From Spirochaetia bacterium (GTDB taxonomy: Bacteria > Spirochaetota > Spirochaetia > DSM-16054 > Sediminispirochaetaceae): a stretch of DNA of 64,000 nucleotides. The notes below the pieces were generated by a model. The model was not told the DNA's origin. It ran no database searches and saw nothing but the letters and a program-made list of their open reading frames with translations. This document shows positions 1 to 16,998 of the stretch, one piece after another (the stretch's first letter is position 1; each line of letters starts with the position of its first letter). The translations under genes and the position numbers were made by a program. Location of the stretch: assembly GCA_034520965.1 (NCBI GenBank), contig JAXHMY010000003.1:64001-128000 (forward strand), in the 5' to 3' direction.

Positions 1-888
1 ACGGCACACAAGTATGAACCGGAGCTCAATCCGCTGTTCGACGATTTCGCCGAGTACTACCGAACCGCGATCATTCCGGCCCGAGCCTACCGGCCTAAGG
101 ATAAGGCTCTTGTCGAGAATGCCGTGAAGCTGGCCTACCAGCGGATCTTCGCTCCGTTGTACGAAAGACAGTTTTACTCCCTCGATGAGCTCAACCAAGC
201 CATCAGGGAGCAGCTTGAGAAGCACAATAACCGAAAGCTGACGAAACTGCAAATCTCCCGCAGGCAATTATTTGAAGAAATCGAGCAAAAAGAACTCAAA
301 ACCCTTCCATCAAGTCCCTATCCGCTCAAATACTTCGAGCATCGAACAGTCGCCCCCGACTATCATGTGCTCCTGTCAGAAGATAAGCACTACTACAGCG
401 CTCCGTGGCGCTTCAAAGGCGCGAAGGTACGGCTGATCTTCGATGAGCGAAATGTGGCCATTTATGCCGACGGTCAGCGGGTTGCACAGCACCGCAGAGA
501 TACTCGAAGAGGAGGCTACACCACTGTAGAGGCACATATGCCGACCCACCATCAGTTCTATGCCTCCTGGTCTGCCGAAAAGTTTACCCAGTGGGCTCAG
601 AGCATCGGAGAGGAGACCAATCTGGTCATCTCCCACCTCCTGCAGTCCAAGCGGCACAAAGAGCAGGCTTACAAATCTTGTGTCGGCATCCTCTCGATGG
701 CGACCAAGTACTCGGCCGAGGAGCTGAACATTGCCTGCCGCAAAGCCTGGAACTACAACCGTATCAGCTATCGGGATGTAAAGGGCTACCTCGAAGACCT
801 GCGACTCCAGCGAAAACTCAACCGCGAAGACAAACAGATGAAAATGTTTGCCCATGAGAACCTCAGAGACAGTGCAATTTACCAATAG
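1..888 (+). CDS. istA: IS21 transposase IstA (5'-truncated by window)
   Basis: Frame is open from base 1 (...IIPARAYRPKDKALVENAV..., the IS21 DDE-region signature); C-terminal YYSAPWRF motif. Confidence 0.9.
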   Translation, partial: TAHKYEPELNPLFDDFAEYYRTAIIPARAYRPKDKALVENAVKLAYQRIFAPLYERQFYSLDELNQAIREQLEKHNNRKLTKLQISRRQLFEEIEQKELKTLPSSPYPLKYFEHRTVAPDYHVLLSEDKHYYSAPWRFKGAKVRLIFDERNVAIYADGQRVAQHRRDTRRGGYTTVEAHMPTHHQFYASWSAEKFTQWAQSIGEETNLVISHLLQSKRHKEQAYKSCVGILSMATKYSAEELNIACRKAWNYNRISYRDVKGYLEDLRLQRKLNREDKQMKMFAHENLRDSAIYQ

Positions 889-900
889 GAGATAAAGAAT

Positions 901-1641
901 ATGAACAACACACAGGCGACAATCAACAAGATGAGCAGCATGAGGCTTCACGGTATGGCAGGTGCCTATCGTAGCCTGCTGGAGTCCGGTCGGAATATGA
1001 ATCTCACCGTAGATGAGGCGATTTCCTACCTCATTGATGCCGAGTGGGACGAGAAACAGGACCGTCGGCTTACCCGGCTACTTCAAGCCGCTCGGTTCCG
1101 CTACCAGGCTTCGATTGAGGATATCGATTTCTCTCTCGAGAGAAATATAGATAAGACTACCCTGCTGCGATTAGCCGACTGCTCCTGGATCTCCCGGGGG
1201 CAGGATATCATCATAACAGGAGCGACCGGAGTGGGAAAAAGCTTCGTTGGTACGGCTCTCGGCTTCCAAGCCTGCCATCATGGACACCCGGTAAAGTATT
1301 ACTCTGCGGCCCGCCTCTTCCGTGAAATGGAGGAGGCAAAAAACGATGGAACGTATCTTAAACAGATAAACCGCATCATGAAGTGTGCGGTCCTCATCCT
1401 TGATGACTTCGGCCTTGAGATGCTCAGCGATACCGCACGGCTTGCTCTGCTTGAGATTCTCGAGGACCGCCATCGCAGAAAATCTACTATCGTCATATCA
1501 CAGCTGCCGGTTTCCGCCTGGCACCAGATCATCGGTGAGGCGACTATAGCCGACGCGATTATGGACCGCATGGCTTTCAATTCTCACAGAATTGAGCTAA
1601 AAGGCGACTCGGTGAGGAGGAAAATGTATGGAATAGATTGA
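901..1641 (+). CDS. istB: IS21 helper AAA+ ATPase IstB
   Basis: Walker A GATGVGKS, Walker B LILDDFG, ADAIMDR and IELKGDSVR motifs; directly follows istA. Confidence 0.95.
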   Translation: MNNTQATINKMSSMRLHGMAGAYRSLLESGRNMNLTVDEAISYLIDAEWDEKQDRRLTRLLQAARFRYQASIEDIDFSLERNIDKTTLLRLADCSWISRGQDIIITGATGVGKSFVGTALGFQACHHGHPVKYYSAARLFREMEEAKNDGTYLKQINRIMKCAVLILDDFGLEMLSDTARLALLEILEDRHRRKSTIVISQLPVSAWHQIIGEATIADAIMDRMAFNSHRIELKGDSVRRKMYGID

Positions 1642-2687: not shown

Positions 2688-2822
2688 ACATAACGTTCAC
2701 TTGAGTTGCCTGGCGCTGTTATGATTTAGCCCACTCACTTTAACCATTGTAACTCCTGTTTTTCAATTCAACAATTTCTTTGCTATATTCACCGCCAGGT
2801 CAACTCCAAGTGGTTGTTATGT
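2688..2822 (-). repeat. attC site (belongs to TA cassette 11)
   Basis: 135 bp; ACATAAC...GTTATGT core sites, arms acttgagttgcctggcg / cgccagg(t)caact(c)caagt with two unpaired bases. Confidence 0.95.
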
Positions 2823-2842
2823 TCTATCATTTGTCATTTTTA

Positions 2843-3166
2843 TTATCTTATATTTCTTCTCATAAGAATATCTTCAATATTTCTTCTCCCATCAATGATA
2901 GCCATAACATACACAATATTATGATCTTCTTTATACATTATTCTCCAAGGACTTACTATTAGTTCTCTATATTTTATAATATTCTGTTCATATAATTCGG
3001 GGATTATTCTTCCGCTCTTCGGGAATTCATTTAATTCTATGGTAACATTTTTTATTTTATCATATTGTTCTATTGCATTATTTATTGAATTTATAGAAAT
3101 ATATTCTATGATATCATCAAGATCTTTTACTGCTGTTTCCGTCCACACTACTTTAATTTTTTTCAA
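2843..3166 (-). CDS. RelE/ParE-family toxin (cassette 11)
   Basis: VVWTETAVKDLDDIIEYI...L.EFPKSGRIIPEL...YRELIVSPWRIMY...DGRR pattern; downstream of an antitoxin. Confidence 0.9.
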   Translation of the reverse strand: MKKIKVVWTETAVKDLDDIIEYISINSINNAIEQYDKIKNVTIELNEFPKSGRIIPELYEQNIIKYRELIVSPWRIMYKEDHNIVYVMAIIDGRRNIEDILMRRNIR

Positions 3167-3184
3167 TAATATATCCTAATTCTA

Positions 3185-3475
3185 TTAATTGTTCTTTTTC
3201 TTTAATTCTTTTATTTTATTATCAAATTCGTTAAACAACTTATCTTGATCTATTACTTTTTCTTTTTCGATATCATTTTCACTCTGAGACATTATTTTTA
3301 ATATTCCAATACTGTTGATCATGGATTGATATGTTTCTGTGTCTAATAGTACAGCTTTTGCTTCTCCATTTTGTGTTATGATCATGGGGTGATGGGTATC
3401 GTTTACTCGCTTTAACATCTCAGCAGCGTTTGTTTTTATGTAGGATATTGGTTTTATATCGTCTTTTATGTTCAT
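3185..3475 (-). CDS. Phd/YefM-family antitoxin (cassette 11)
   Basis: IKPISYIK.NAAEML..V...HHPMIITQNGEAKAVLLD signature. Confidence 0.9.
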   Translation of the reverse strand: MNIKDDIKPISYIKTNAAEMLKRVNDTHHPMIITQNGEAKAVLLDTETYQSMINSIGILKIMSQSENDIEKEKVIDQDKLFNEFDNKIKELKKKNN

Positions 3476-3486
3476 AATGAACCTCC

Positions 3487-3524
3487 AGTACTTATATAGT
3501 ACTTAATTAAGACTTATTAGTCAA
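3487..3524 (-). promoter_or_regulatory. TA cassette promoter with palindromic operator
   Basis: TTGACT-17 bp-TACTAT on minus (3519-3524, 3496-3501), overlapped by AGTACT-N5-AGTACT; same in the copy near 7054-7091. Confidence 0.7.
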
Positions 3525-3540
3525 TCTATATTTTGATGGA

Positions 3541-3675
3541 ACATAACGTTCACTTGAGTTGCCTGGCGGTGTTACGCAATAGCCCACTCTCTTTAACCAT
3601 TGTAACTCCAGTTCTCCAAATCAACAATCTCTTTCTCAATTTCATCGCCAGGACAACTCCAAGTGGTTGTTATAT
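3541..3675 (-). repeat. attC site (cassette 10)
   Basis: Same 135-bp repeat family. Confidence 0.95.
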
Positions 3676-3680
3676 AGCAT

Positions 3681-4166
3681 TTAATTCAATTCCAGTATTT
3701 CAATCTTTATATGTTCGATCATTTTATTTATATTCTTATAATATTCTTTTAAACTTACAAAACCAATGGTTGAATCATTACCATGAGCTATTCTGTGTCT
3801 TTGACCAATAATTGAATTAATAGATGCTTTTACTTCATCATAGTTATCTATTTCCGATAATTTAACCACCCAATCATCATTAAACTTTTTAAATAAAGTT
3901 TCAATTTTCTCAGTTTTTGCATTAGTAAATGTTTTTAAATTATTATGAATATAATTTTTAATATAGTCATGAGATTTTTCTTCAGAATATTTTAATAATA
4001 ATAAGTAAATTGATTTTTCTAAATAACCGGAAATTAGCACACAAAGATATTTTGTGAGGTGAGATACTAGTTCAAAATCATAATTATCGTTTTCATTTAA
4101 ATAATCAATTTTTTCAAAAATATTTTCTATCTTTCTTTTTGATTTTTCAATTTCTATATTCGTCAT
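3681..4166 (-). CDS. HEPN-domain protein (RiboL-PSP/MAE_28990-like putative RNase) (cassette 10)
   Basis: YLCVLISGYLEKS helix and RHRIAHG (R-x4-H HEPN motif); overlaps the end of the DUF262 gene. Confidence 0.82.
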   Translation of the reverse strand: MTNIEIEKSKRKIENIFEKIDYLNENDNYDFELVSHLTKYLCVLISGYLEKSIYLLLLKYSEEKSHDYIKNYIHNNLKTFTNAKTEKIETLFKKFNDDWVVKLSEIDNYDEVKASINSIIGQRHRIAHGNDSTIGFVSLKEYYKNINKMIEHIKIEILELN

Positions 4167-5240
4167 TTATTTTCTCTATTGCAATATCAATTCTACTAAT
4201 TACACTCTCTTTATGATGAGTTTTACCTGTAAAAATTGAATTTTCGAATTTTTTATTTTTATGCATTTCTTTCACTACTTGATAAATATTTTTTTTATTA
4301 TTATCTATAATTTTAACATTTTTACTTATACCGACAAAAATAGAATCTAAAATTGCTATATTTAGAGCATTGCCTTTTGGCCTAAAAAATTGTAGACCAA
4401 TATCATTACAAATGTAATTGAGAGTTGTAGTAAAAGTTTCTTTTACCTCATCTTTATCAATATTATCTAAATTTTTATTAGTTGACATGAACTCATTTAA
4501 AAGAATTTCATGTTGCCTTTATAACTTTTATAATCGTAATGCAATGCTATTAATCTTAAAATTATTTCTTCGTCTTTTTTTCTTTTAGGATTTATACTAA
4601 AATTTTCCTGCCAAAGGTTCAAATCTTTAAGTTCTTTTAACAATTCTTGAAGCTCACCTTGATAAATAGCTGTTCTTATTTCTTGTGGATATAAATTCAT
4701 ACCTCCTGAATTTAGTCTCTCAAATATAAGAAATATACTTTCATTATTTTTATCCTTCGGATCCTCTGGTTTAACTATTGTGGCGTGTAGTATCGTATCA
4801 TCAACTTTATTTTTTAGTTCTTGTGGTAATGTCTCATAAGTTAGATTCAAATAGTCTGAGTGCACATCTATAAGCTTAAAATTTCTATCTTTATATTTAC
4901 CTACATAAAAAGCATACAAAGCATTAATCCTCTGTTGTCCATCAATTACTAACAAATTATTAGTTCCCTCTTGAACAGAAAGAAAAATACCTGGGATCGG
5001 TATACCTAAGAGAATTGATTCAATGAATTTTGAGCATTGTTTAGAAGACCATACTAGATTTCTTTGAAAATCTGGTACTACAATACTATTATTTTTAAAT
5101 CTTCTTACTAATCCATTAACATCGAAGTCAATTCCATAGCTTGTTAATGAATACGAGAACGGAACGGATTCATCCGAATCACTTTCATCAATAATTTGTT
5201 CATTAATTTCTTTTTCGTATTCATAATCTTCATAATCCAT
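4147..5240 (-). CDS. DUF262/GmrS-like (ParB-fold) protein, split by a 1-nt frameshift near 4498 (cassette 10)
   Basis: FQR, DGQQR and IFERLN motifs; adding one T to the run at about 4498-4502 gives continuous KFFLNEFMSTNK. Confidence 0.85.
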
Positions 5241-5283
5241 ACTTTACTCCAAATAAATATTCTTCTTTAGCAATCATGCTGCT

Positions 5284-5418
5284 ATATAACGTTCACTTGA
5301 GTTGCCTGGCGCTGTTACGCAATAGCCCACTCTCTTTAACCATTGTAACCCGAGTTTCGCAATACAACAACTTCTTTGCCAAATAGTCCGCCAGGTCAAC
5401 TCCAAGTGGTTGTTATGT
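5284..5418 (-). repeat. attC site (cassette 9)
   Basis: Same repeat family; internal sequence identical to 13098-13232. Confidence 0.95.
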
Positions 5419-5421
5419 TCA

Positions 5422-6120
5422 TTACATTTTACTTTTTATCCATATCCCTGTATATTCTGGTACAACTGCACTTTTACTCTCTAATACTTTATCTTTCATT
5501 TCTTCTCCAAAGAAAAAACTTATTATTTGGGCAGCTTCTCTATAGTCATTGAATTTATAATCAGTTTTAACAATAGTTTTTACAAACGCATATTCTTCTT
5601 CAAGCAAGCTATAGAATTCTATTAAATCAGTATTATTTATTTCCGGATCTTTCACATTTGTACCAAGAGTTTCAATTAATATTTTCACACTATTATCAGT
5701 GGTTATCTGATTTATGTTATTTAACAGCTTTACAGTAGTACTCTGAATATCATTATTGTTTTCAACTATAGTGTGTCCAAAACTCCATCCTTCAATAAAT
5801 ATATGTGCTTTATTTTTTACCAAAGGCAAATTCTCATTTTCACCAACATTCAAAACTATTTTATCTGAATATTTTTTTAAGTTTTTTTTACATCTATTTA
5901 GCATATGAGCTTCCCGATCAAACCCATAGAGCTTCTCTATTTTGTCAATATATATTTTGGAGAGACGTCCCGTACCGATACCTGCCTCATATACGATCTT
6001 TTTATCCCATTCTATTTTATTTAATAGCTCTTCAGTCAAGTTGTTTTGATAATCTTCAGCGGTTACCAACTTGTCGTATTCGGTAGCATACTTTTTATAT
6101 ATTTCACTCATTTTCGGCAA
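5422..6120 (-). CDS. Class I SAM-dependent methyltransferase (cassette 9)
   Basis: Motif I VYEAGIGTGRLS, acidic motif II YGFDRE, ENLPL. Confidence 0.8.
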   Translation of the reverse strand: MPKMSEIYKKYATEYDKLVTAEDYQNNLTEELLNKIEWDKKIVYEAGIGTGRLSKIYIDKIEKLYGFDREAHMLNRCKKNLKKYSDKIVLNVGENENLPLVKNKAHIFIEGWSFGHTIVENNNDIQSTTVKLLNNINQITTDNSVKILIETLGTNVKDPEINNTDLIEFYSLLEEEYAFVKTIVKTDYKFNDYREAAQIISFFFGEEMKDKVLESKSAVVPEYTGIWIKSKM

Positions 6121-6254
6121 AACAATTTTCCCTTCCTCATTTTGTTAATCTAAAACTCACAATAACTTTTGAGATTAAAATAGTATTATAAATAATTTTT
6201 ATCTTACATGCCCACTAAGTTTAACCAACTTCAGCATCGATAGTAATTTCATGA

Positions 6255-6389
6255 ACATAACGTTCACTTGAGTTGCCTGGCGCTGTTATGATTTAGCCCA
6301 CTCACTTTAACCATTATAACCCCAGTTCGCCAAATCAACAAATTCTTTGCCATATTCACCGCCAGGACAACTCCAAGTGGTTGTTATGT
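6255..6389 (-). repeat. attC site (cassette 8)
   Basis: Same repeat family. Confidence 0.95.
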
Positions 6390-6409
6390 TCTATCATTTG
6401 TCATTTTTA

Positions 6410-6733
6410 TTATCTTATATTTCTTCTCATAAGAATATCTTCAATATTTCTTCTCCCATCAATGATAGCCATAACATACACAATATTATGATCTTCTTTA
6501 TACATTATTCTCCAAGGACTTACTATTAGTTCTCTATATTTTATAATATTCTGTTCATATAATTCGGGGATTATTCTTCCGCTCTTCGGGAATTCATTTA
6601 ATTCTATGGTAACATTTTTTATTTTATCATATTGTTCTATTGCATTATTTATTGAATTTATAGAAATATATTCTATGATATCATCAAGATCTTTTCCTGC
6701 TGTTTCCGTCCACACTACTTTAATTTTTTTCAA
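6410..6733 (-). CDS. RelE/ParE-family toxin, second copy (cassette 8)
   Basis: One amino-acid difference from 2843-3166. Confidence 0.9.
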   Translation of the reverse strand: MKKIKVVWTETAGKDLDDIIEYISINSINNAIEQYDKIKNVTIELNEFPKSGRIIPELYEQNIIKYRELIVSPWRIMYKEDHNIVYVMAIIDGRRNIEDILMRRNIR

Positions 6734-6751
6734 TAATATATCCTAATTCTA

Positions 6752-7042
6752 TTAATTGTTCTTTTTCTTTAATTCTTTTATTTTATTATCAAATTCGTTA
6801 AACAACTTATCTTGATCTATTACTTTTTCTTTTTCGATATCATTTTCACTCTGAGACATTATTTTTAATATTCCAATACTGTTGATCATGGATTGATATG
6901 TTTCTGTGTCTAATAGTACAGCTTTTGCTTCTCCATTTTGTGTTATGATCATGGGGTGATGGGTATCGTTTACTCGCTTTAACATCTCAGCAGCGTTTGT
7001 TTTTATGTAGGATATTGGTTTTATATCGTCTTTTATGTTCAT
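6752..7042 (-). CDS. Phd/YefM-family antitoxin, second copy (cassette 8)
   Basis: Protein identical to 3185-3475. Confidence 0.9.
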   Translation of the reverse strand: MNIKDDIKPISYIKTNAAEMLKRVNDTHHPMIITQNGEAKAVLLDTETYQSMINSIGILKIMSQSENDIEKEKVIDQDKLFNEFDNKIKELKKKNN

Positions 7043-7107
7043 AATAAACCTCCAGTACTTATATAGTACTTTATTAAGACTTATTAGTCAATCTATATTT
7101 TGATGGA

Positions 7108-7242
7108 ACATAACGTTCACTTGAGATGCTTGGCGCTAACAGTATATAGCCCACTCACTTTAACCATTGTAACTCTACATTTCCAATTCAAAAATCTCTT
7201 TGCCATATTCACCGCCAGGTCAACTCCAAGTGGTTGTTATGT
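7108..7242 (-). repeat. attC site (cassette 7), most divergent arm
   Basis: Same family, but the left arm reads ttgagatgcttggcg (two mismatches in the stem). Confidence 0.93.
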
Positions 7243-7250
7243 GCACCTCA

Positions 7251-8336
7251 TTATTTCTTTAATAATTCATACAACTCTCTATTAACATAGATTGTTTCTT
7301 TCCAAGATTTATATGATTCTAATATTCCTATTTCTTCTAACTGCTTAAGATATTTACTAGCAGTTCTTCTTTCAGCAATATTCTCATTTACTAAAAACTC
7401 AATTTTTGTGTACGGCTGTACAAATAATAATTCAATTAGTTCCTTGGAGTAAGTTGTTTTTGGCAGTTTTTCTTTACATAATTCTATAGTCTTATTCATT
7501 AGATTCATTATTGAAGAAATTATCTGCAATGTATCTTTTGAAGTTTCTTCTACTGCTCTTAGCATAAATAAAATCCATTTTTCCCATGCATTATCAGTTC
7601 TTACTTTTTGCAATAAATTGTAATATTGTCCCTTGTTTTTTATTATATAATCACTTAAATAGAGTATGGGGGTATCAATTAAATTCTTTTGTACCAGATA
7701 TAAAACATTTATTATTCTTCCTGTTCTGCCATTGCCGTCATAGAATGGATGTATCGATTCAAACTGGTAGTGTATAATAGCCATTTTAATAAGAGAATCA
7801 ATTGCGCTGTCTTTATTCATATAGCTTTCTAAGTTAGAAAGTAAATTCAATATTGTTTTCTCATTATCCGGTGGTGTGTATATCACCTCACCTGTTTGAT
7901 CATTCATCAAACTTGTTCCAGGCAGTTTCCTAATGCCAGCATTATTTTTTTCTAAATCTTTTTGTATATTTAAGATCGTGTTTATACTCAGCCCACCTTT
8001 TTTGCTAAGTTCGTTATAACCGGTCCATATTGCTGATCGATAATTTAATACTTCTTTTGTTGCTGTATCGATTTTTCTTTCACTTTCTGCTAGCGCTTTA
8101 TATATTTCATCCTGAGTAGTAATTATATTTTCGATTTCAGAGCTTGTTCTTGCTTCCTTCAATACTATGGAATTAAGTAATATGGTTTCATTTGGTAACA
8201 GAGAACAATAACCTTTTAACCTGGCAAGCTCTCTATTTGCTTTTATTGCTTGGTTCAGAATTTTCTTTGTTTCAATATCAACCTTTGGAGGAAGATGAGG
8301 CAGATCGTTGTATGGTTCATTTTTATTAATGCTCAT
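7251..8336 (-). CDS. Fic-family AMP transferase, SoFic-like (cassette 7)
   Basis: HPFYDGNGRTGR Fic motif, N-terminal inhibitory SSEIEN motif, C-terminal wHTH-like RRTASKYLKQLEEIGIL; probable start is ATG at 8336 (MSINKN). Confidence 0.92.
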   Translation of the reverse strand: MSINKNEPYNDLPHLPPKVDIETKKILNQAIKANRELARLKGYCSLLPNETILLNSIVLKEARTSSEIENIITTQDEIYKALAESERKIDTATKEVLNYRSAIWTGYNELSKKGGLSINTILNIQKDLEKNNAGIRKLPGTSLMNDQTGEVIYTPPDNEKTILNLLSNLESYMNKDSAIDSLIKMAIIHYQFESIHPFYDGNGRTGRIINVLYLVQKNLIDTPILYLSDYIIKNKGQYYNLLQKVRTDNAWEKWILFMLRAVEETSKDTLQIISSIMNLMNKTIELCKEKLPKTTYSKELIELLFVQPYTKIEFLVNENIAERRTASKYLKQLEEIGILESYKSWKETIYVNRELYELLKK

Positions 8337-8339
8337 TTC

Positions 8340-8388
8340 ATGTACATTATAACACATTCTTTGCTCATTACAAGCTTTTCATGTACAT
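8340..8388 (-). promoter_or_regulatory. Fic cassette promoter flanked by two ATGTACAT palindromes
   Basis: TTGTAA-16 bp-TATAAT with extended -10 TGn; ATGTACATGAAA occurs twice (8340-8347 and 8381-8388 cores); conserved in the copy at 11284-11332. Confidence 0.7.
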
Positions 8389-8395
8389 ATCGTGC

Positions 8396-8530
8396 ACATA
8401 ACGTTCACTTGAGTTGCCTGGCGCTGTTACGCCTTAGCCCACTCACTTTAACCATTGTAACTCCAGTACTCAAATTAAACAACTTCTTTGCCAAATAGAC
8501 CGCCAGGTCAACTCCAAGTGGTTGTTATAT
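8396..8530 (-). repeat. attC site (cassette 6)
   Basis: Same repeat family. Confidence 0.95.
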
Positions 8531-8592
8531 GCCCGATACAGACAAAAATTATAAGAGAAGAGCAAGAAGAGTAAGGAAAAAAAGTGGTTGAT

Positions 8593-10014
8593 TTATTGGC
8601 CTAATCGGTTATCGATAATACGAACATAATAATCCATTGGATCTTTTCCTACCCACGCATCTGAAAAATCAGTATTATCAACATATCCATAAAAAGAGTG
8701 GATACCAGCATTATTATATCCGCTATATGAATTATTTAAAATTTCACCTAAAAATTGATCACTACTATATGTCAATAGCTCTGATTTTTCACTATCTTCA
8801 TTATATGCGTCAATTATCCGATTAAACGTAGAATCAGCTCCTTGGAAATCTTTTATCAATTCAGATTTTACACTAACATGTATTAACTCATGAAAAAGAG
8901 TCGCCATTGTGATTTCTGCTATTTCCTCACCTTGATATGATTCTAAAATATCTAATGTGCGAGGGAAAAAAGAAATTCGAGGCGGATTATTTGTTGCAGG
9001 ATAATATTGAGTAACTGCTGCCCAATTTCTAGAAGAATATACTAAATTTATTCTCCAATAATGATCATCACCAGGTGCTAAGATGTCATCGTAGATTACG
9101 GGAAGTCGGTGTTTCAATATTTCAAAAGATGAGACAATCTGTTCAACAAATTCCTCTCCCATAGAATCATCGACTAATTCCCCGTCATAACTGATGAAGA
9201 TATTATCATCATAGCGAAATACACGTTCAAAAGAGCGGACTTCATCGACTGGATTACCAACATAGTATGTGAATGGACTTGTCGAAAATGTATCTTCACC
9301 ATAGAATTCAGAGAACAACTCTTCAGCTTGTTCTTTTGTCAACTCAGTTGCATTCTGCATTGCCAAGTCTCCAATTTCCATATTACGAATATACCCCATA
9401 TGATTTTTGATGATGAGTTCGAGCTGTTGATCAACTGTCAATGAATCATCACCAGTTATCATCTCACGATATTCTGTATCAAGTTCTCTGTATGGTGTTT
9501 CTTCGTAATAGTTACGAAATTCTGGCCTTAACCAATCCAATCGAGTACGATATAAAGTAACACGAGGAATCACACCACGATCTTCATCTTCTACTCGTTC
9601 AAAGTACTCTTGACCATCAGCACTCCACGACCCAAAGATTTGCATAGGAGGATTCACTTCATAGCCACCAATGGTTTTACCATTCAAATCCTCTTGTGTA
9701 AACATCCCGGCATATCCTTTATACCAACTATCTGTAAAATAATACTCAGGATTAACCAGTTCAAACAGACCATCCTCCCCTATACAAGAATCAGGAAGGT
9801 CATCTAGTGCATCTGCAATCCGTTCATCAGAATAAGGGTGACCAGAAAGGAATTGTGACGCTTCTTGTGTCGCCTCTTCACTTGAAACTGTGGTAGATTG
9901 CTCACTTTGCTGCTGTTGCGTGGGATCTGTCATCCCTTGTGCAGACGGAGCAGTTGTACAACTGGTTGAAATAACTAGTGTAATTATGATGGTAATACTG
10001 CCTAATTTTTGCAT
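8593..10014 (-). CDS. Acidic lipoprotein with HExxH motif (putative zinc metallopeptidase) (cassette 6)
   Basis: Signal peptide ending ISTSC, Q/S/T-rich linker, TLFHELIH followed about 50 aa later by E (SELLTY). Confidence 0.6.
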   Translation of the reverse strand: MQKLGSITIIITLVISTSCTTAPSAQGMTDPTQQQQSEQSTTVSSEEATQEASQFLSGHPYSDERIADALDDLPDSCIGEDGLFELVNPEYYFTDSWYKGYAGMFTQEDLNGKTIGGYEVNPPMQIFGSWSADGQEYFERVEDEDRGVIPRVTLYRTRLDWLRPEFRNYYEETPYRELDTEYREMITGDDSLTVDQQLELIIKNHMGYIRNMEIGDLAMQNATELTKEQAEELFSEFYGEDTFSTSPFTYYVGNPVDEVRSFERVFRYDDNIFISYDGELVDDSMGEEFVEQIVSSFEILKHRLPVIYDDILAPGDDHYWRINLVYSSRNWAAVTQYYPATNNPPRISFFPRTLDILESYQGEEIAEITMATLFHELIHVSVKSELIKDFQGADSTFNRIIDAYNEDSEKSELLTYSSDQFLGEILNNSYSGYNNAGIHSFYGYVDNTDFSDAWVGKDPMDYYVRIIDNRLGQ

Positions 10015-10051
10015 TTTTTTTATACCTCATATTTTTTATTCTCATTCGTGC

Positions 10052-10186
10052 ATATAACGTTCACTTGAGTTGCCTGGCGCTGTTACGCCATAATCTACTC
10101 TCTTTAACCATTGTAACTCCAGTTATCCAATTCAACAAACACTTTGCCATATTCATCGCCAGGTCAACTCCAAGTGGTTGTTATGT
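10052..10186 (-). repeat. attC site (cassette 5)
   Basis: Same repeat family. Confidence 0.95.
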
Positions 10187-10194
10187 GCACCACA

Positions 10195-11280
10195 TCATTT
10201 CTTTAATAATTCATACAAATCTCTATTAACATAGATTGTTTCTTTCCAAGATTTATATGATTCTAATATTTCTATTTCTTCTAACTGCTTTAGATATTTA
10301 CTAGCAGTTCTTCTTTCAGCAATATTCTCATTTACTAAAAACTCAATTTTTGTGTACGGCTGTACAAATAATAATTCAATGAGTTCCTTAGAGTAAGTTG
10401 TTTTTGGCAGTTTTTCTTTACATAATTCTATAGTCTTATTCATTAGATTCATTATTGAAGAAATTATCTGCAATGTATCTTTTGAAGTTTCTTCTACTGC
10501 TCTTAGCATAAATAAAATCCATTTTTCCCATTCATTATCAGTTCTTACTTTTTGCAATAAATTGTAATATTGTCCCTTGTTTTTTATTATATAATCACTT
10601 AAATAGAGTATGGGGGTATCAATTAAATTCTTTTGTACCAGATATAAAACATTTATTATTCTTCCTGTTCTGCCATTGCCGTCATAGAATGGATGTATCG
10701 ATTCAAACTGGTAGTGTATAATAGCCATTTTAATAAGAGAATCAATTTCGCTATCTTTATTCATATAGCTTTCTAAGTTAGAAAGTAAATCTAATATTGT
10801 TTTCTCATTATCCGGTGGTGTGTATATCACCTCACCTGTTTGATCATTCATCAAACTTGTTCCAGGCAGTTTCCTTATGCCAGCATTATTTCCTTCTAGG
10901 TCTTTTTGTATATTTAAGATCGTGTTTATACTCAGCCCACCTTTTTTGCTAAGTTCGTTATAACCGGTCCATATTGCTGATCGATAATTTAATACTTCTT
11001 TTGTTGCTGTATCGATTTTTCTTTCACTTTCTGCTAGCGCTTTATATATTTCATCCTGAGTAGTAATTATATTTTCAATTTCAGAGCTTGTTCTTGCTTC
11101 CTTCAATACTATGGAATTAAGTAATATGGTTTCATTTGGTAACAGAGAACAATAACCTTTTAACCTGGCAAGCTCTTTATTTGCCTTTATTGCTTGGTTC
11201 AGAATTTTCTTTGTTTCAATATCAACCTTTGGAGGAAGATGAGGCAGTCCGTTGTTTGGTTCATTTTTATTAATACTCAT
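10195..11280 (-). CDS. Fic-family protein, SoFic-like, second copy (cassette 5)
   Basis: About 9 amino-acid differences from 7251-8336; same motifs. Confidence 0.92.
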   Translation of the reverse strand: MSINKNEPNNGLPHLPPKVDIETKKILNQAIKANKELARLKGYCSLLPNETILLNSIVLKEARTSSEIENIITTQDEIYKALAESERKIDTATKEVLNYRSAIWTGYNELSKKGGLSINTILNIQKDLEGNNAGIRKLPGTSLMNDQTGEVIYTPPDNEKTILDLLSNLESYMNKDSEIDSLIKMAIIHYQFESIHPFYDGNGRTGRIINVLYLVQKNLIDTPILYLSDYIIKNKGQYYNLLQKVRTDNEWEKWILFMLRAVEETSKDTLQIISSIMNLMNKTIELCKEKLPKTTYSKELIELLFVQPYTKIEFLVNENIAERRTASKYLKQLEEIEILESYKSWKETIYVNRDLYELLKK

Positions 11281-11339
11281 TTCATGTACATTATAACACA
11301 TTCTTTGCTCATTACAAGCTTTTCATGTACATATCGTGC

Positions 11340-11474
11340 ACATAACGTTCACTTGAGTTGCCTGGCGCTGTTACGCTTTAGCCTACTCTCTTTAACCATT
11401 GTAACTCCAGTTTTCTAAATCAACAATCTCTTTCTCAATTTCATCGCCAGGACAACTCCAAGTGGTTGTTATAC
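11340..11474 (-). repeat. attC site (cassette 4)
   Basis: Same repeat family. Confidence 0.95.
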
Positions 11475-12055
11475 ACGCTGCATTCATATTTCATCATATC
11501 CTAGATTGTGTTATTGCAACTATAGTTCATATCTTTATTCTTTTTTTCTCACGCATGCACTAATTTTTTTACTCTTTGAATATTCTTATCTTATTTAAGT
11601 ACCTAGTATTTTTTGTTCTATTTACATTTGATAGCTCGTTCATCTTTTTTTTAAGGAATCTTATTCCAGAATCATAACATATCTAAAACTACCAATTATA
11701 CTTTGCCAATTTTATACTTACTCCGAAAACGAAGCTTTTTACTATTACATTTTCACCCGATCTATTACAATTTTAAACATTGTTCCAATTGCATCCATTT
11801 TTTTTATCAGAACTATACTTACGCACCTTATTAGTTATCTTTATCTGATCAATATTACTTCGACATTGTAATTTGTATTTTATATTCTCACATTACATCA
11901 ATTAGATATTTATTATGATATTCATTTAAGCAGTTCTATCATATTTTATCTATTCATTTTTTCTCTTCTATCAATCAATTCGTTTTTTACTTTATAAATG
12001 TTTTTCTATTTCTTTTTTGATACTATTTTATTTACATAGTTCTAAATTGGCAGCG
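11475..12055. other. Gene-less integron cassette body (cassette 4)
   Basis: About 580 bp between two attC with matching ends (gttatacacgctgc / gcagcggtataac); no ORF of 60 aa or more in the six-frame track. Confidence 0.8.
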
Positions 12056-12190
12056 GTATAACGTTCACTTGAGTTGCCTGGCGCTGTTACGCTATAACTC
12101 ATAATCTTTAACCAGTGTACACCCGGTATCTCAAATCAACAAATACTTTTACCTATTTACCGCCAGGACAACTCCAAGTGGTTGTTATGG
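12056..12190 (-). repeat. attC site (cassette 3), most divergent loop
   Basis: Same arms; loop differs at many positions but has the same length. Confidence 0.95.
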
Positions 12191-13087
12191 AGCAATTTTA
12201 TCATAAATTGCTTTGAAAGCTTTTTTATCTTTATTTAATTCATTAGTTAGTTGCTTTGGATCTAAAATATACTTTTTCTTATGCTGAACTACTCGTTTTT
12301 CAGTATTATGGAGCATCTCAATAATATTATCCCTACAGTTTTTTTGTAAACCGTAGTATTCAAACAACTCGATTATTTTTTCATTAATCTCAATCGTCTC
12401 TTTGGTGATCTCTGGATAAAAACATGAGCTAATACTACTGTTTGGTTCAATATTGTATTGATAGTATTTTGAAGATAGAAATTTAATAGAGTGGGTGACT
12501 TTAAAAATGTTCAGATTGAAAAGCAGATCTTCCCCATATGAAAAACTCTCATCGAATCTTATTTTTTTAGTAACAGTATTCAGGTAAATCTTATTCCAGA
12601 TAGGATTGAAAATATATCTATTGAAATTTTGCTTTAATTCTTTTTCTAGCAATTGTTGAGTTGAGCAACTCATGTTTTGGAAATTTACTTCCTCAATATT
12701 ATTATCGGGGCTCATTTTTTTTGTGAAGCCTAAAATGTAAACATCTGTCTCATCGTTGATAGTTCTAACTATCGAATTAAATTCTCCAGCATCAATTTGA
12801 TCATCGGAATCTATAAAAATTATCCATTTTTTTGATGCGCTCTGAAGACCGATATTCCGTGCTGCTGAAACTCCTTGTTTTACAATTTTTTTATATTTTA
12901 TTCGTTGATCTCTTTTAATTTCACTACGAATAATATTTGATTCGGATTCATTTGACCCATCGTCTATTAATAGAAACTCTATATCGGGGATATCGATTCC
13001 ATTTATTGAATTTAAACACCGTAAGACTTTTTCGGATCGATTAAAGAAAGGAATAATGCATGATATGCTCATTTTTCTTCTTTCCAT
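12185..13087 (-). CDS. Family 2 glycosyltransferase (cassette 3)
   Basis: ISCIIPFFN, LLIDDGS, GVSAARNIGL, FIDSDD, GEDLLF; probable start ATG 13087 behind GGAG. The longer ORF-track start runs through an attC. Confidence 0.9.
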   Translation of the reverse strand: MERRKMSISCIIPFFNRSEKVLRCLNSINGIDIPDIEFLLIDDGSNESESNIIRSEIKRDQRIKYKKIVKQGVSAARNIGLQSASKKWIIFIDSDDQIDAGEFNSIVRTINDETDVYILGFTKKMSPDNNIEEVNFQNMSCSTQQLLEKELKQNFNRYIFNPIWNKIYLNTVTKKIRFDESFSYGEDLLFNLNIFKVTHSIKFLSSKYYQYNIEPNSSISSCFYPEITKETIEINEKIIELFEYYGLQKNCRDNIIEMLHNTEKRVVQHKKKYILDPKQLTNELNKDKKAFKAIYDKIAP

Positions 13088-13097
13088 GTTAAAGTCT

Positions 13098-13232
13098 CCA
13101 TAACGTTCACTTGAGTTGCCTGGCGCTGTTACGCAATAGCCCACTCTCTTTAACCATTGTAACCCGAGTTTCGCAATACAACAACTTCTTTGCCAAATAG
13201 TCCGCCAGGTCAACTCCAAGTGGTTGTTATGT
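13098..13232 (-). repeat. attC site (cassette 2)
   Basis: Same repeat family. Confidence 0.95.
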
Positions 13233-13235
13233 TCA

Positions 13236-13938
13236 TTACATTTTACTTTTTATCCATATCCCTGTATATTCTGGTACAACTGCACTTTTACTCTCTAATA
13301 CTTTATCTTTCATTTCTTCTCCAAAGAAAAAACTTATTATTTGGGCAGCTTCTCTATAGTCATTGAATTTATAATCAGTTTTAACAATAGTTTTTACAAA
13401 CGCATATTCTTCTTCAAGCAAGCTATGAGAATTCTATTAAATCAGTATTATTTATTTCCGGATCTTTCACATTTGTACCAAGAGTTTCAATTAAATATTT
13501 TCACACTATTATCAGTGGTTATCTGATTTATGTTATTTAACAGCTTTAACAGTAGTACTCTGAATATCATTATTGTTTTCAACTATAGTGTGTCCAAAAC
13601 TCCATCCTTCAATAAATATATGTGCTTTATTTTTTACCAAAGGCAAATTCTCATTTTCACCAACATTCAAAACTATTTTATCTGAATATTTTTTTAAGTT
13701 TTTTTTACATCTATTTAGCAATATGAGCTTCCCGATCAAACCCATAGAGCTTCTCTATTTTGTCAATATATATTTTGGAGAGACGTCCCGTACCGATACC
13801 TGCCTCATATACGATCTTTTTATCCCATTCTATTTTATTTAATAGCTCTTCAGTCAAGTTGTTTTGATAATCTTCAGCGGTTACCAACTTGTCGTATTCG
13901 GTAGCATACTTTTTATATATTTCACTCATTTTCGGCAA
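13236..13938 (-). pseudogene. Second copy of SAM methyltransferase, broken by several 1-nt insertions (cassette 2; may be consensus error)
   Basis: Matches 5422-6120 except about five single-base insertions. Confidence 0.8.
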
Positions 13939-14072
13939 AACAATTTTCCCTTCCTCATTTTGTTAATCTAAAACTCACAATAACTTTTGAGATTAAAATA
14001 GTATTATAAATAATTTTTATCTTACATGCCCACTAAGTTTAACCAACTTCAGCATCGATAGTAATTTCATGA

Positions 14073-14208
14073 ACATAACGTTCACTTGAGTTGCCTGGCG
14101 CTGTTACTGCAATAGTCCACTCTCTTTAACCATTGTAACTCCAGTTTTCCGAATCAAAAATCTCTTCTCCAATTTCATCGCCAGGACAACTCCAAGTGGT
14201 TGTTATGT
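14073..14208 (-). repeat. attC site (cassette 1)
   Basis: Same family, 136 bp (one extra base). Confidence 0.95.
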
Positions 14209-14212
14209 TTAA

Positions 14213-15026
14213 TCAGTTATCTAATTTTAATAATTTATTAGCATACTCAGATCCATGGTTTTCACACCAATATGTTTTCATGTAATACGCATTATTAAAA
14301 TCGAAGTTTTTATTATCTTTCAATGATAATGATTGCCATATATCTTTTTTCTCACCAGTATAGGTACCGTTTTCACACCCACAAGACTTAAGTGCATAAT
14401 CAGATTTTAATTCTTTATAATATCTATCTGAAACCATTAACTGTCCCTTTTCTGTCAAACTCGCTAATTTTGCAGCCATATTCACTGGCTTACCTGCCCA
14501 TACTTCATTTCTTCTATCTGATCTATTATTCCTTTTGCCTTAAACCTATTTTTTTTACTAATACAGTCTTTTTATCTATTCCTATATGTACACCTAAATC
14601 CAATTTACTTCTTTGCTTATATAAAGGAATAAAAGATTTTTCTACAAATGTTTTTACAGTAACAGCGGATACAAGCGATCTATAAATTTCATTTTTATTA
14701 AATAATGCAAAAACGCCATCACCCTGCACTTCGACATATGAAGCATCATAAAAATGAAAAATTTTTATTATTGTACCTGTAAATAATTCATATGCACTGG
14801 CAGTGCTCGAATCATATTTTTGTTCTGCAGAAAGTCTTGTTGAACCAATCATATCCGTATATACACATATTACATCATTTATCTTGAGCCATTTATTTCC
14901 TTCTTTTGGAATATTATTTGTGTCTGGAATGCTGTCAATTATATCAATATTATTTTTCTGATTAAACAGTTCTATTTGTTCGTTTATTTTATCTAAAATA
15001 CCTTTCGGTAGTTGTTTTTCATCCAT
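14213..15026 (-). CDS. Class III nucleotide cyclase, Pycsar PycC-like, split by frameshift near 14530 (cassette 1)
   Basis: VYTDMIGSTRLS, VQGDGVFALF and VHIGID; the shifted frame continues NRSDRRNEVWAGKPVNMAAKLAS. Confidence 0.85.
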
Positions 15027-15036
15027 ACTAATATCC

Positions 15037-15536
15037 CTATAACAAAATTGTTAAAAAAGTTAATATCAAACCAATTGTAAATATGCTAATTGCAATATTA
15101 AATGCTCTAAATTTTTCTAAAACAATATTTGATAGTGTATAAATCTGCTTTGCTATATCTTTTTCTTCTTTATTTAATTCTTCATTATTAAAATACTCCC
15201 TCTGTATTATTTCAATAAATTCATCCTTAGTTTGTATGCAAGCTATATCTGAAAAAAGAAATAAATTTGGATTTGATACAATTTTTCTGCGTCTTGCATA
15301 GATCTGTTTTGTTTTAGGTATCATACTTAACAGACTAATCAATAGTGATAATATTAATAATATAATACTTATAAAAAATATTAAGCTATCATTGTTGTAT
15401 AATAATCTCTGGCTTTTCAGAAACCCAATTAATGCAATTACAAAACCTATTAGTATTGTGTTTTTACTTTCTGCATATTTAATTAAATTTTGCAAATTCT
15501 CAAAATTTCGCTCATTAATTTACTTATCTTGTCCAT
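15037..15536 (-). CDS. Pycsar transmembrane effector (PycTM/DUF5706-like), 5' frameshift near 15508 (cassette 1)
   Basis: IKYAESKN + two hydrophobic helices, NLFLFSDIA, DIAKQIYTLSNIVLEKF + C-terminal hydrophobic helix; GGAG-N7-ATG at 15536. Confidence 0.8.
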
Positions 15537-15549
15537 TATCATGCTCCAG

Positions 15550-15610
15550 GATTAAACATAACATCTTAAATTCCTGGTGTGCTGTGGCGAAGTGCTGCTA
15601 TTGGCCGGTG
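15550..15610 (-). other. attI recombination site (core GTTATGT at 15562-15556; outer boundary approximate)
   Basis: gattaaacataac (15550-15562) is the exact complement of gttatgtttaatc at the end of the first attC, but is not followed by attC arms. Confidence 0.85.
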
Positions 15611-15715: not shown

Positions 15716-16998
15716 ATGCTTAAAGGTGAAATCCAGTTCAGGGAGTATCTATATAAAGTAGCGCATATCCGACAGTGCGAAGTGCCCTATTATATTCAAT
15801 GGGTAAAGAATTTTAAAAACTATTTTCCTGAAGATGTGTATAACAGAAGCACTATCTTGGAACAGTATAAAGGCATAATAGTCTATCGCCTTTATGGGTG
15901 GCAAGTGCAACAGGCTCTTTCTGCTGTAAAGCATTATTGGTACTTTTTGGACAGCCGCTCTTCAGATATGCTTAAACAAGCAGCACCAGAGCAACCGACT
16001 GCTTCCAACGGCGTTGACAAGGCGGAAATGGCGGTGATGGAGGAGGCGCGCCGCATGTTAAGGCTCACCCACCGCTCTTATAAGACCGAACGTTCTTACA
16101 TGGGCTGGATACGGCGGTTCATAGTTTTTATAAAGAAAAATCGCTTTCAATTTGAAAAAGAACGCATAGACCAGGCCGATCTAAAGAGTTTTCTTACCTA
16201 TCTGGCAGTTGAAAAGCAGGTTGCCTCCTCAACCCAGCAGCAGGCATACAATGCCTTGTTGTTTCTTTTTCGCCATGTACTTGGAAAGACTGTAGAGGGT
16301 CTGAACGAAACCATCCGCGCATTCAAACCCAAACGCCTGCCGGTAGTTCTCAGTGAGACCGAAGTTTCCGGTTTGATTCGCCTGCTGCCTTCTCCGTATG
16401 ATTTAATGGCAATGATAATTTATGGTGGTGGGCTTAGACTTTCAGAGTGTATAAGTGTTCGTGTTCATGATCTCGATTTTGATAATGAACGAATCAGTGT
16501 TCATGGCGGCAAGGGCGATAAAGACAGAATCACTCTTTTTCCAAAGGCCGTTCATTCAGCACTGCAAGGTCATCTTAAGGAGGTACGAAAGCTCTACGAA
16601 GAGGACCGTCGTTTGAAGCAACCCGGGTGCCCCTCCCCCAGGCTCTGCAGCGTAAGTATCAATCAGCCTCTTTCGATTGGGGCTGGTTTTGGGTCTTTCC
16701 CTCGCCGCGTCTCAGTATCGATCCACGCAGCGGCGACACTTACCGCATGCACTTGTACCCATCTACCCTCCAAAAGCACTTTAAACAGGGCGTTCGTAAG
16801 TTAAAACTGACAAAGAATGCTACGGTTCATTCCTTGCGGCACAGTTTTGCAACCCACTTAATCGAAGCAGGGTACGATATACGAACAGTGCAGGAGCTAC
16901 TCGGTCACTCAAATATTAACACAACCATGATCTACACCCACGTGGCGGTGAAAAACAAGTTGGGGGTTATCAGTCCCTTAAGCAAACTCGAGTTGTAA
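15716..16998 (+). CDS. intI: Integron integrase (about 427 aa if the 1-nt frameshift near 16627 is corrected)
   Basis: [53 protein letters not shown], integron-specific insert ALQRKY...WGWFWVFPS...[26 protein letters not shown]. Confidence 0.96.

Follow-up and report, generated by a model that had tools for sequence, protein, structure and literature searches.

The window analysed here, a 64,000-nt stretch of a Spirochaetia bacterium genome (GenBank assembly GCA_034520965.1, contig JAXHMY010000003.1, positions 64,001 to 128,000), holds part of a spirochaete sedentary chromosomal integron (SCI) with genuine attC recombination sites. The cassette array is low in GC, lies on the minus strand and is oriented away from the integrase gene intI, with the attC sites coming after the genes. 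The interval 2691-14205 contains eleven attC sites, all on the minus strand, ten of 129 nt and one of 130 nt, with a terminal loop of ~77 nt. They have R'' (AAC) and R' (GTT) cores, L'' and L' boxes and an imperfect bottom-strand hairpin with extrahelical bases. The bottom strand folds as an end-to-end stem with an open loop in 10 of the 11, the remaining site (7111..7239) not adopting this fold as its minimum free energy (MFE) structure. The sites had no match in Rfam at E<=1. As near-identical long repeats behind intI, with R and L boxes, extrahelical bases and a long terminal loop, they are like the Vibrio cholerae repeats (VCR; ~120-128 bp) and the Treponema succinifaciens attC (132 bp). 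In the standard model of integrons, only cassettes near the cassette promoter Pc are expressed and the attC loop is free sequence.

Read on the cassette strand, each of the eleven loops contains a -35-like hexamer (TTGTTG in eight sites, TTTTTG in two, TTGTTT in one) and a -10-like hexamer (TACAAT in nine, TATAAT in one, TACACT in one), always 17 bp apart. Our recount of these hexamers and spacers agrees exactly with the original prediction, which had reported them at all eleven sites, as do the positions 2774-2769, 2751-2746 and 6318-6313 that it gave as examples. Starting next to intI, the 130-nt attC of the first cassette (14076..14205) has TTTTTG at 14160-14155, TACAAT at 14137-14132 and a predicted +1 at 14125. 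The attC at 13101..13229 (TTGTTG 13184-13179, TACAAT 13161-13156) is followed by a glycosyltransferase cassette that starts 16 nt past the crossover, where a promoter of its own would not fit. Then come the sites at 12059..12187 (TTGTTG 12142-12137, TACACT 12119-12114), 11343..11471 (TTGTTG 11426-11421, TACAAT 11403-11398), 10055..10183 (TTGTTG 10138-10133, TACAAT 10115-10110), 8399..8527 (TTGTTT 8482-8477, TACAAT 8459-8454), 7111..7239, which has a weakened stem (TTTTTG 7194-7189, TACAAT 7171-7166), 6258..6386 (TTGTTG 6341-6336, TATAAT 6318-6313), 5287..5415, identical to 13101-13229 (TTGTTG 5370-5365, TACAAT 5347-5342), 3544..3672 (TTGTTG 3627-3622, TACAAT 3604-3599) and 2691..2819 (TTGTTG 2774-2769, TACAAT 2751-2746, predicted +1 at 2739). 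The spacer is indeed 17 at every site, as had been claimed, but its constancy within the window is weak evidence, because the copies are close kin with a single indel in all eleven; the case for an invariant spacer rests on homologues.

To collect homologues we used search patterns that specified the arms only and not the loop; the metagenome scan used DNA from 80 of 81 stretches and is possibly a sample. There were 108 distinct matches, and one sequence with an unrelated loop (L037/L043) was dropped before counting, leaving 107, of which 20 come from the host genome (G000). Their loops fall into 12 clusters that are 38-65% alike. By parsimony, the three key columns of the -35 (T, T, G) and of the -10 (T, A, T) changed 5, 1, 8, 1, 2 and 1 times over the 107 sites, against a loop median of 11. 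In sum, the six columns show 18 tree changes against 73 under the null (p 4.5e-5), and the constraint persists when the comparison is limited to A/T columns (p 4e-5) or to the gap-free core (p 8e-4). Position 3 of the -10, by comparison, changed 14 times and its neighbours 2 and 0 times, which is the sigma70 pattern; the variants are TACAAT (72), TAAAAT (19), TACACT (4), TAGAAT (3) and others. TAnnnT is present in 101 of the 107 and TTG in 92. In the alignment 105 sites have a spacer of 17 and two have one of 16, and the spacer underwent 2 length changes where the flanking parts of the loop underwent 13 and 16 (binomial p 0.006). An alignment-free count likewise peaks at spacer 17: there 95 of 107 sites have the pattern on the cassette strand, and the other strand never exceeds 15 at any spacer. 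The cassette strand carries the pattern TTG-(16-18)-TAnnnT in 93 of 107 sites, the other strand carries it in 5, and shuffling of the 107 loops yields it in 9.4. The predicted +1 is A in 96 and +2 is G in 101.

Against circularity, we chose an independent set of 40 sites lying outside G000 and outside the two subfamilies of the window. In these diverged sites identity to the window consensus is 99% at the key bases, 55% in the spacer and 44% and 37% in the flanking loop; the six key columns show 3 changes against 36.5. All 40 have a spacer of 17, with flanks that range from 18 to 22 and from 25 to 30. Nothing in the loop is more constrained than the key bases and the length of the spacer, and homologues do not lose them as freely as other loop positions, the outcome that would have spoken against the original prediction. 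Two further elements of that prediction fared less well. The AAAG island upstream of the -35 occurs in 10 of the 11 window sites (the one ending at 14205 has GAAG) and is only 69% kept in the diverged set, and GGTTAAAG, described as part of the conserved signal, is 49% kept there; GGTTAAAG and most of AAAG proved to be signatures of the window subfamily only.

The same layout characterises the promoters of the host. We assembled 920 upstream regions of G000 from crude open reading frame (ORF) calls, with the array masked, and found TTG-17-TAnnnT 233 times in them against 60 expected (0.75-1.5x at other spacers). A host model fitted by expectation-maximisation (EM) has a TTGACA-like -35, spacer 17 (81%) and TAnnnT, and its information profile tracks conservation across the attC sites (rho -0.53, p 0.002). 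Most of the diverged loop clusters score 7.5-12.7 bits on this model. A generic promoter scan, which requires 4/6 matches in the -35, is uninformative for these sites. On the bottom strand the best scores exceed those of shuffles (median 5.4) but are scattered and mostly lack A-11, and an antisense promoter was rejected. Among 86 downstream cassettes, a gene start (crude ORF call) lies at most 45 nt into the cassette in 32, a leader too short for a promoter of its own.

A second, longer attC family (~165 nt) with an extended stem occurs beside the short sites, with 63 matches in 8 of 401 genomes of the class (L134-L163, L004, L045, L110 and L129); in G010 and G108 both families sit in the same arrays, and viral contigs gave no match to the long one. 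Its loops form four subtypes, 34-47% alike, with no clear kinship to the short-family loop (best E 0.28). The retrieved loci gave 32 distinct loops, and 30 of these carry TAnA[AC]T on the cassette strand 14-15 nt before the 3' stem, compared with 2 on the other strand and 7.4 in shuffles; this motif was chosen after four examples had been inspected. Twenty of the loops have an extended TG, and none of these 20 has TTG at spacer 17, whereas four sites of one subtype without TG have TTGTTC or TTTTTC at spacer 17. Such a trade-off between TG and -35 is the behaviour of sigma70 promoters.

Loop remnants were also seen. L008:217-277 (in G009) and L010:1474-1549 (in G002) keep both boxes without recognisable arms, and a gene starts 78 and 86 nt downstream of them, respectively; these two hand-picked cases among eight are possibly domesticated attC promoters. 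The loop remnant in L018 faces an antisense gene instead. Family members also occur on short contigs of genomes labelled Bacteroidales, Eubacteriaceae and Kosmotogaceae (L027, L030-L034), through cross-phylum spread of cassettes or mis-binning. A plasmid search gave no match to the attC family.

The loops thus show the layout of a promoter: invariant T1, A2 and T6 of the -10 with a freer middle, TTG in the -35 and a spacer of 17 +/- 1. Judged from this comparison of sequences, the six key bases and the spacer length are under purifying selection, as a one-directional, promoter-shaped signal in an unstructured loop. We consider it likely that the ~77-nt attC loop holds a weak, built-in promoter of the housekeeping sigma70 type, TTG-N17(+3)-TAnAAT, on the cassette strand. 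Both the match to host promoter architecture and the strand specificity support the proposal that it is aimed at the next cassette.

Several observations weigh against this conclusion. TAnnnT is lost in 6 and TTG absent in 15 of the 107 homologues, and a short attC with the same arms (L056:989-1075) has lost most of the loop, both boxes included. In one long-family subtype (5 loops) the -10 has neither TG nor TTG. The column p-values assume that columns are independent, and the EM fit of the host model took the sigma70 consensus as its starting point. On that model the best site falls at the expected register in 77 of 107 loops, and the window sites score 3.4-7.4 bits, where the better half of host upstream regions has a median of 9.6 and a 10th percentile of 6.7 and shuffled regions have a 75th percentile of 6.0. 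Scores at the weak end of host promoters mean that the attC promoter, if real, is weak. Finally, three positions are conserved beyond the need of the host profile: T at -32, kept in 104 of 107 where A is the preference of the host (0.60), A at -20 and A at -9; this excess may reflect tuning or a second binder.

A second binder leads to one alternative, that RNA polymerase or another protein binds the motif for the sake of recombination, either because melting or transcription-driven supercoiling aids hairpin extrusion or because occupancy damps excision. Long loops are reported to need melting for cruciform extrusion, with up to 4 logs less recombination under replicative conditions (PMC8946536), and the loop of the present family is long and unstructured. 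The extra conserved T-32, A-20 and A-9, as well as the interrupted TTGT/ACAA repeat found in 62 of 107, could mark such a binder. A role in recombination is nevertheless unlikely, given that the motif always points toward the next cassette in both attC families, that 35 of 107 sites have an inverted repeat disrupted by uncompensated changes, and that the arm-less remnants before genes in G009 and G002, hand-picked as they are, keep the boxes. Alternatively, the two islands could pair into a small hairpin and so make the single-stranded loop more compact for the integrase. TTGT can pair with ACAA (over 4-5 bases in the same 62 loops), and we therefore tested for a loop hairpin. The folding z-score of the loop is ~0, i.e. 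no better than shuffles; RNAalifold on 31 representatives placed no pairs in the loop (median pair probability 0.025); and the central G:C of the repeat is broken in those 35 sites, with at most one two-sided change. The true stem pairs, by contrast, covary strongly across the 107 (e.g. CG 75, TA 16, AT 12). T-12 and T-7 are moreover conserved yet lie outside the repeat. A conserved loop hairpin (a branched variable terminal structure), showing neither compensatory changes nor low folding energy, was rejected, and the compaction explanation is largely refuted and very improbable.

The motif might also be a family signature only, copied with the attC from a common template, its promoter look a by-product of ancestry in an AT-rich loop. 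SCI attC sites are known as near-identical repeats (PMC8876359), the promoter-like pattern arises in ~9% of shuffled loops, host-model scores are modest, and transcription starts inside Vibrio attC sites were judged possibly spurious (PMC11014356). Yet ancestry alone fails to account for the 99% against 37-55% retention in diverged sites, for a fixed spacer with variable flanks or a variable third -10 base, and for the constant position of a -10 in four types of long-family loop that are hardly akin. Four unrelated attC loops caught by the first search pattern (two in L021, one each in L023 and L025) also lack the motif. Like the recombination role, this explanation has little probability in our view, and a promoter in the loop remains the favoured reading.

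If such a promoter operates, RNA polymerase would start ~7 nt past the -10, at an A that lies ~49-50 nt from the end of the attC. The transcript would hold only the 3' arm, cross the crossover point and read the next cassette at a low level. With the 3' arm alone such an RNA is expected to fold weakly and to avoid the full hairpin, as the original prediction had suggested; RNA MFE is -7 to -16 kcal/mol from the predicted +1, compared with -32 to -46 kcal/mol when the 5' arm is included. The full attC hairpin in RNA is a reported hindrance to translation of downstream cassettes (PMC8876359). Since the attC travels with the upstream cassette, each cassette would carry a portable promoter for the next one, or for itself as an excised circle. 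Expression would then be set by the identity of the neighbour as well as by the distance from Pc, and we infer that each cassette would set the expression of its neighbour.

Published accounts of SCI arrays hold distal cassettes to be silent and attC to lack a promoter (PMC8946536, PMC13108822), and a conserved promoter layout in the loop distinguishes the window sites from the V. cholerae repeats as these are described. In Vibrio sp. DAT722 a sigma70-type hybrid promoter bridges the attC between cassettes 20 and 21, and a -35 occurs in several attC sites (PMC2945992). There too attC sequence is used to express the next cassette, but the -10 lies in one cassette and the promoter is unique in the array, whereas here both boxes are in nearly every attC loop. 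Gene-less promoter cassettes of Vibrionaceae and Treponema (PMC11014356, PMC6557892) are also mobile promoters for distal cassettes, and one start has been mapped inside an attC; they are dedicated cassettes and their attC starts are scattered, unlike the fixed position in the attC of ordinary gene-bearing cassettes found here, which do not qualify as gene-less promoter cassettes. Pc2A and Pc2B of class 2 integrons likewise place cassette promoters in a recombination-site region, that of attI2 (PMC5559693), but as one fixed platform site and not as one per mobile cassette. The best functional analogue is the type II-C clustered regularly interspaced short palindromic repeat (CRISPR) array of Neisseria, in which each repeat has a promoter for the adjacent unit (PMC12477760); its products are short RNAs, integration is by Cas1-Cas2 and there is no homology to attC.

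Our literature searches, which took in PMC3607928, 10.1101/2024.07.02.601686, PMC8352920, PMC5737381, PMC11215538 and PMC5963079 but few subscription papers, turned up no report of attC loops with a conserved promoter. The word 'promoter' is absent from a paper modelling Spirochaetes attC sites, the aacA16 and 224-RNA papers have nothing on attC promoters, and neither does the main text of the V. cholerae transcription start site paper, which is without 'attC' or 'VCR'. A fixed promoter inside attC would therefore appear to be a new variant of this site.

The integrase gene intI (15716..16998, plus strand) matches TIGR02249 on both pieces of a gene that the assembly splits into two reading frames; the break, near 16620, is inside a run of C's. 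Single-base shifts relative to intact copies also affect other array genes (13533-13938 against 5422-6120, and the first cassette against G000:C3:63004, C3 being the contig of the array), so assembly error and real decay are indistinguishable. The probable attI crossover core lies at approximately 15556..15562 (minus strand), placed there since the cassette copy at G000:C3:63004 begins like the sequence downstream of it. A Pc candidate within intI (15789..15817, minus strand) reads TTTAAA-17-TATAAT and scores 12.1 bits on the host model. An IS21-like element (istA end and istB, 124..1641, plus strand) splits the array, which goes on left of the window: nhmmer finds 21 full-length attC matches on C3, to ~40.6 kb, that is, ten more besides the eleven in the window. 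It also finds copies on contigs C8 and C2. The copies outside the main array (C8:1332-5190, C2:425971-426099 and C7:187699-187801), several with decayed arms, keep TTG-17-TAnnnT or a one-base variant in 4 of 5 cases. The same attC is present in G019, a genome of the same class.

Duplicated cassettes in the array are a sign of past shuffling. One is a Phd/RelE cassette, whose Phd antitoxin gene (3185..3475, minus strand; second copy 6752-7042) has a leader with its own strong promoter-like site (~15 bits). Both Fic cassettes have their own TTGTAA-16-TG-TATAAT site (8346-8373 and 11290-11317) directly before the likely start. The first cassette (14526-15495) encodes a Pycsar effector-like membrane protein (PF18967) and then a 166-amino-acid protein without a family match that by eye resembles a nucleotide cyclase fragment, a possible Pycsar-like defence cassette. 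The cassette at 3681-5240, with GmrSD_N (DUF262) and RiboL-PSP-HEPN domains, is likely a defence pair, and the 589-nt cassette at 11471-12059, which has no sense ORF of at least 60 amino acids, is gene-less or broken.

These sequence comparisons suggest that stored cassettes may be weakly switched on, not silent. More broadly, we lean slightly towards a class of integrons, spanning at least several spirochaete families, whose attC is two-in-one, a recombination hairpin and a tuned promoter. Low-level expression would reach every cassette of the array individually, shuffling would join genes to new promoters of different strength, and the promoter would have been kept or re-evolved in several unrelated loops, of the -35 type and of the extended -10 type; for these arrays the silent-memory model would be overturned. 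A selected promoter inside attC would provide a reason for loops that are long and costly. It would also explain how distal cassettes (among them the defence-like ones of this array) and integrase-less arrays are expressed, and cassette order would become a local expression code.

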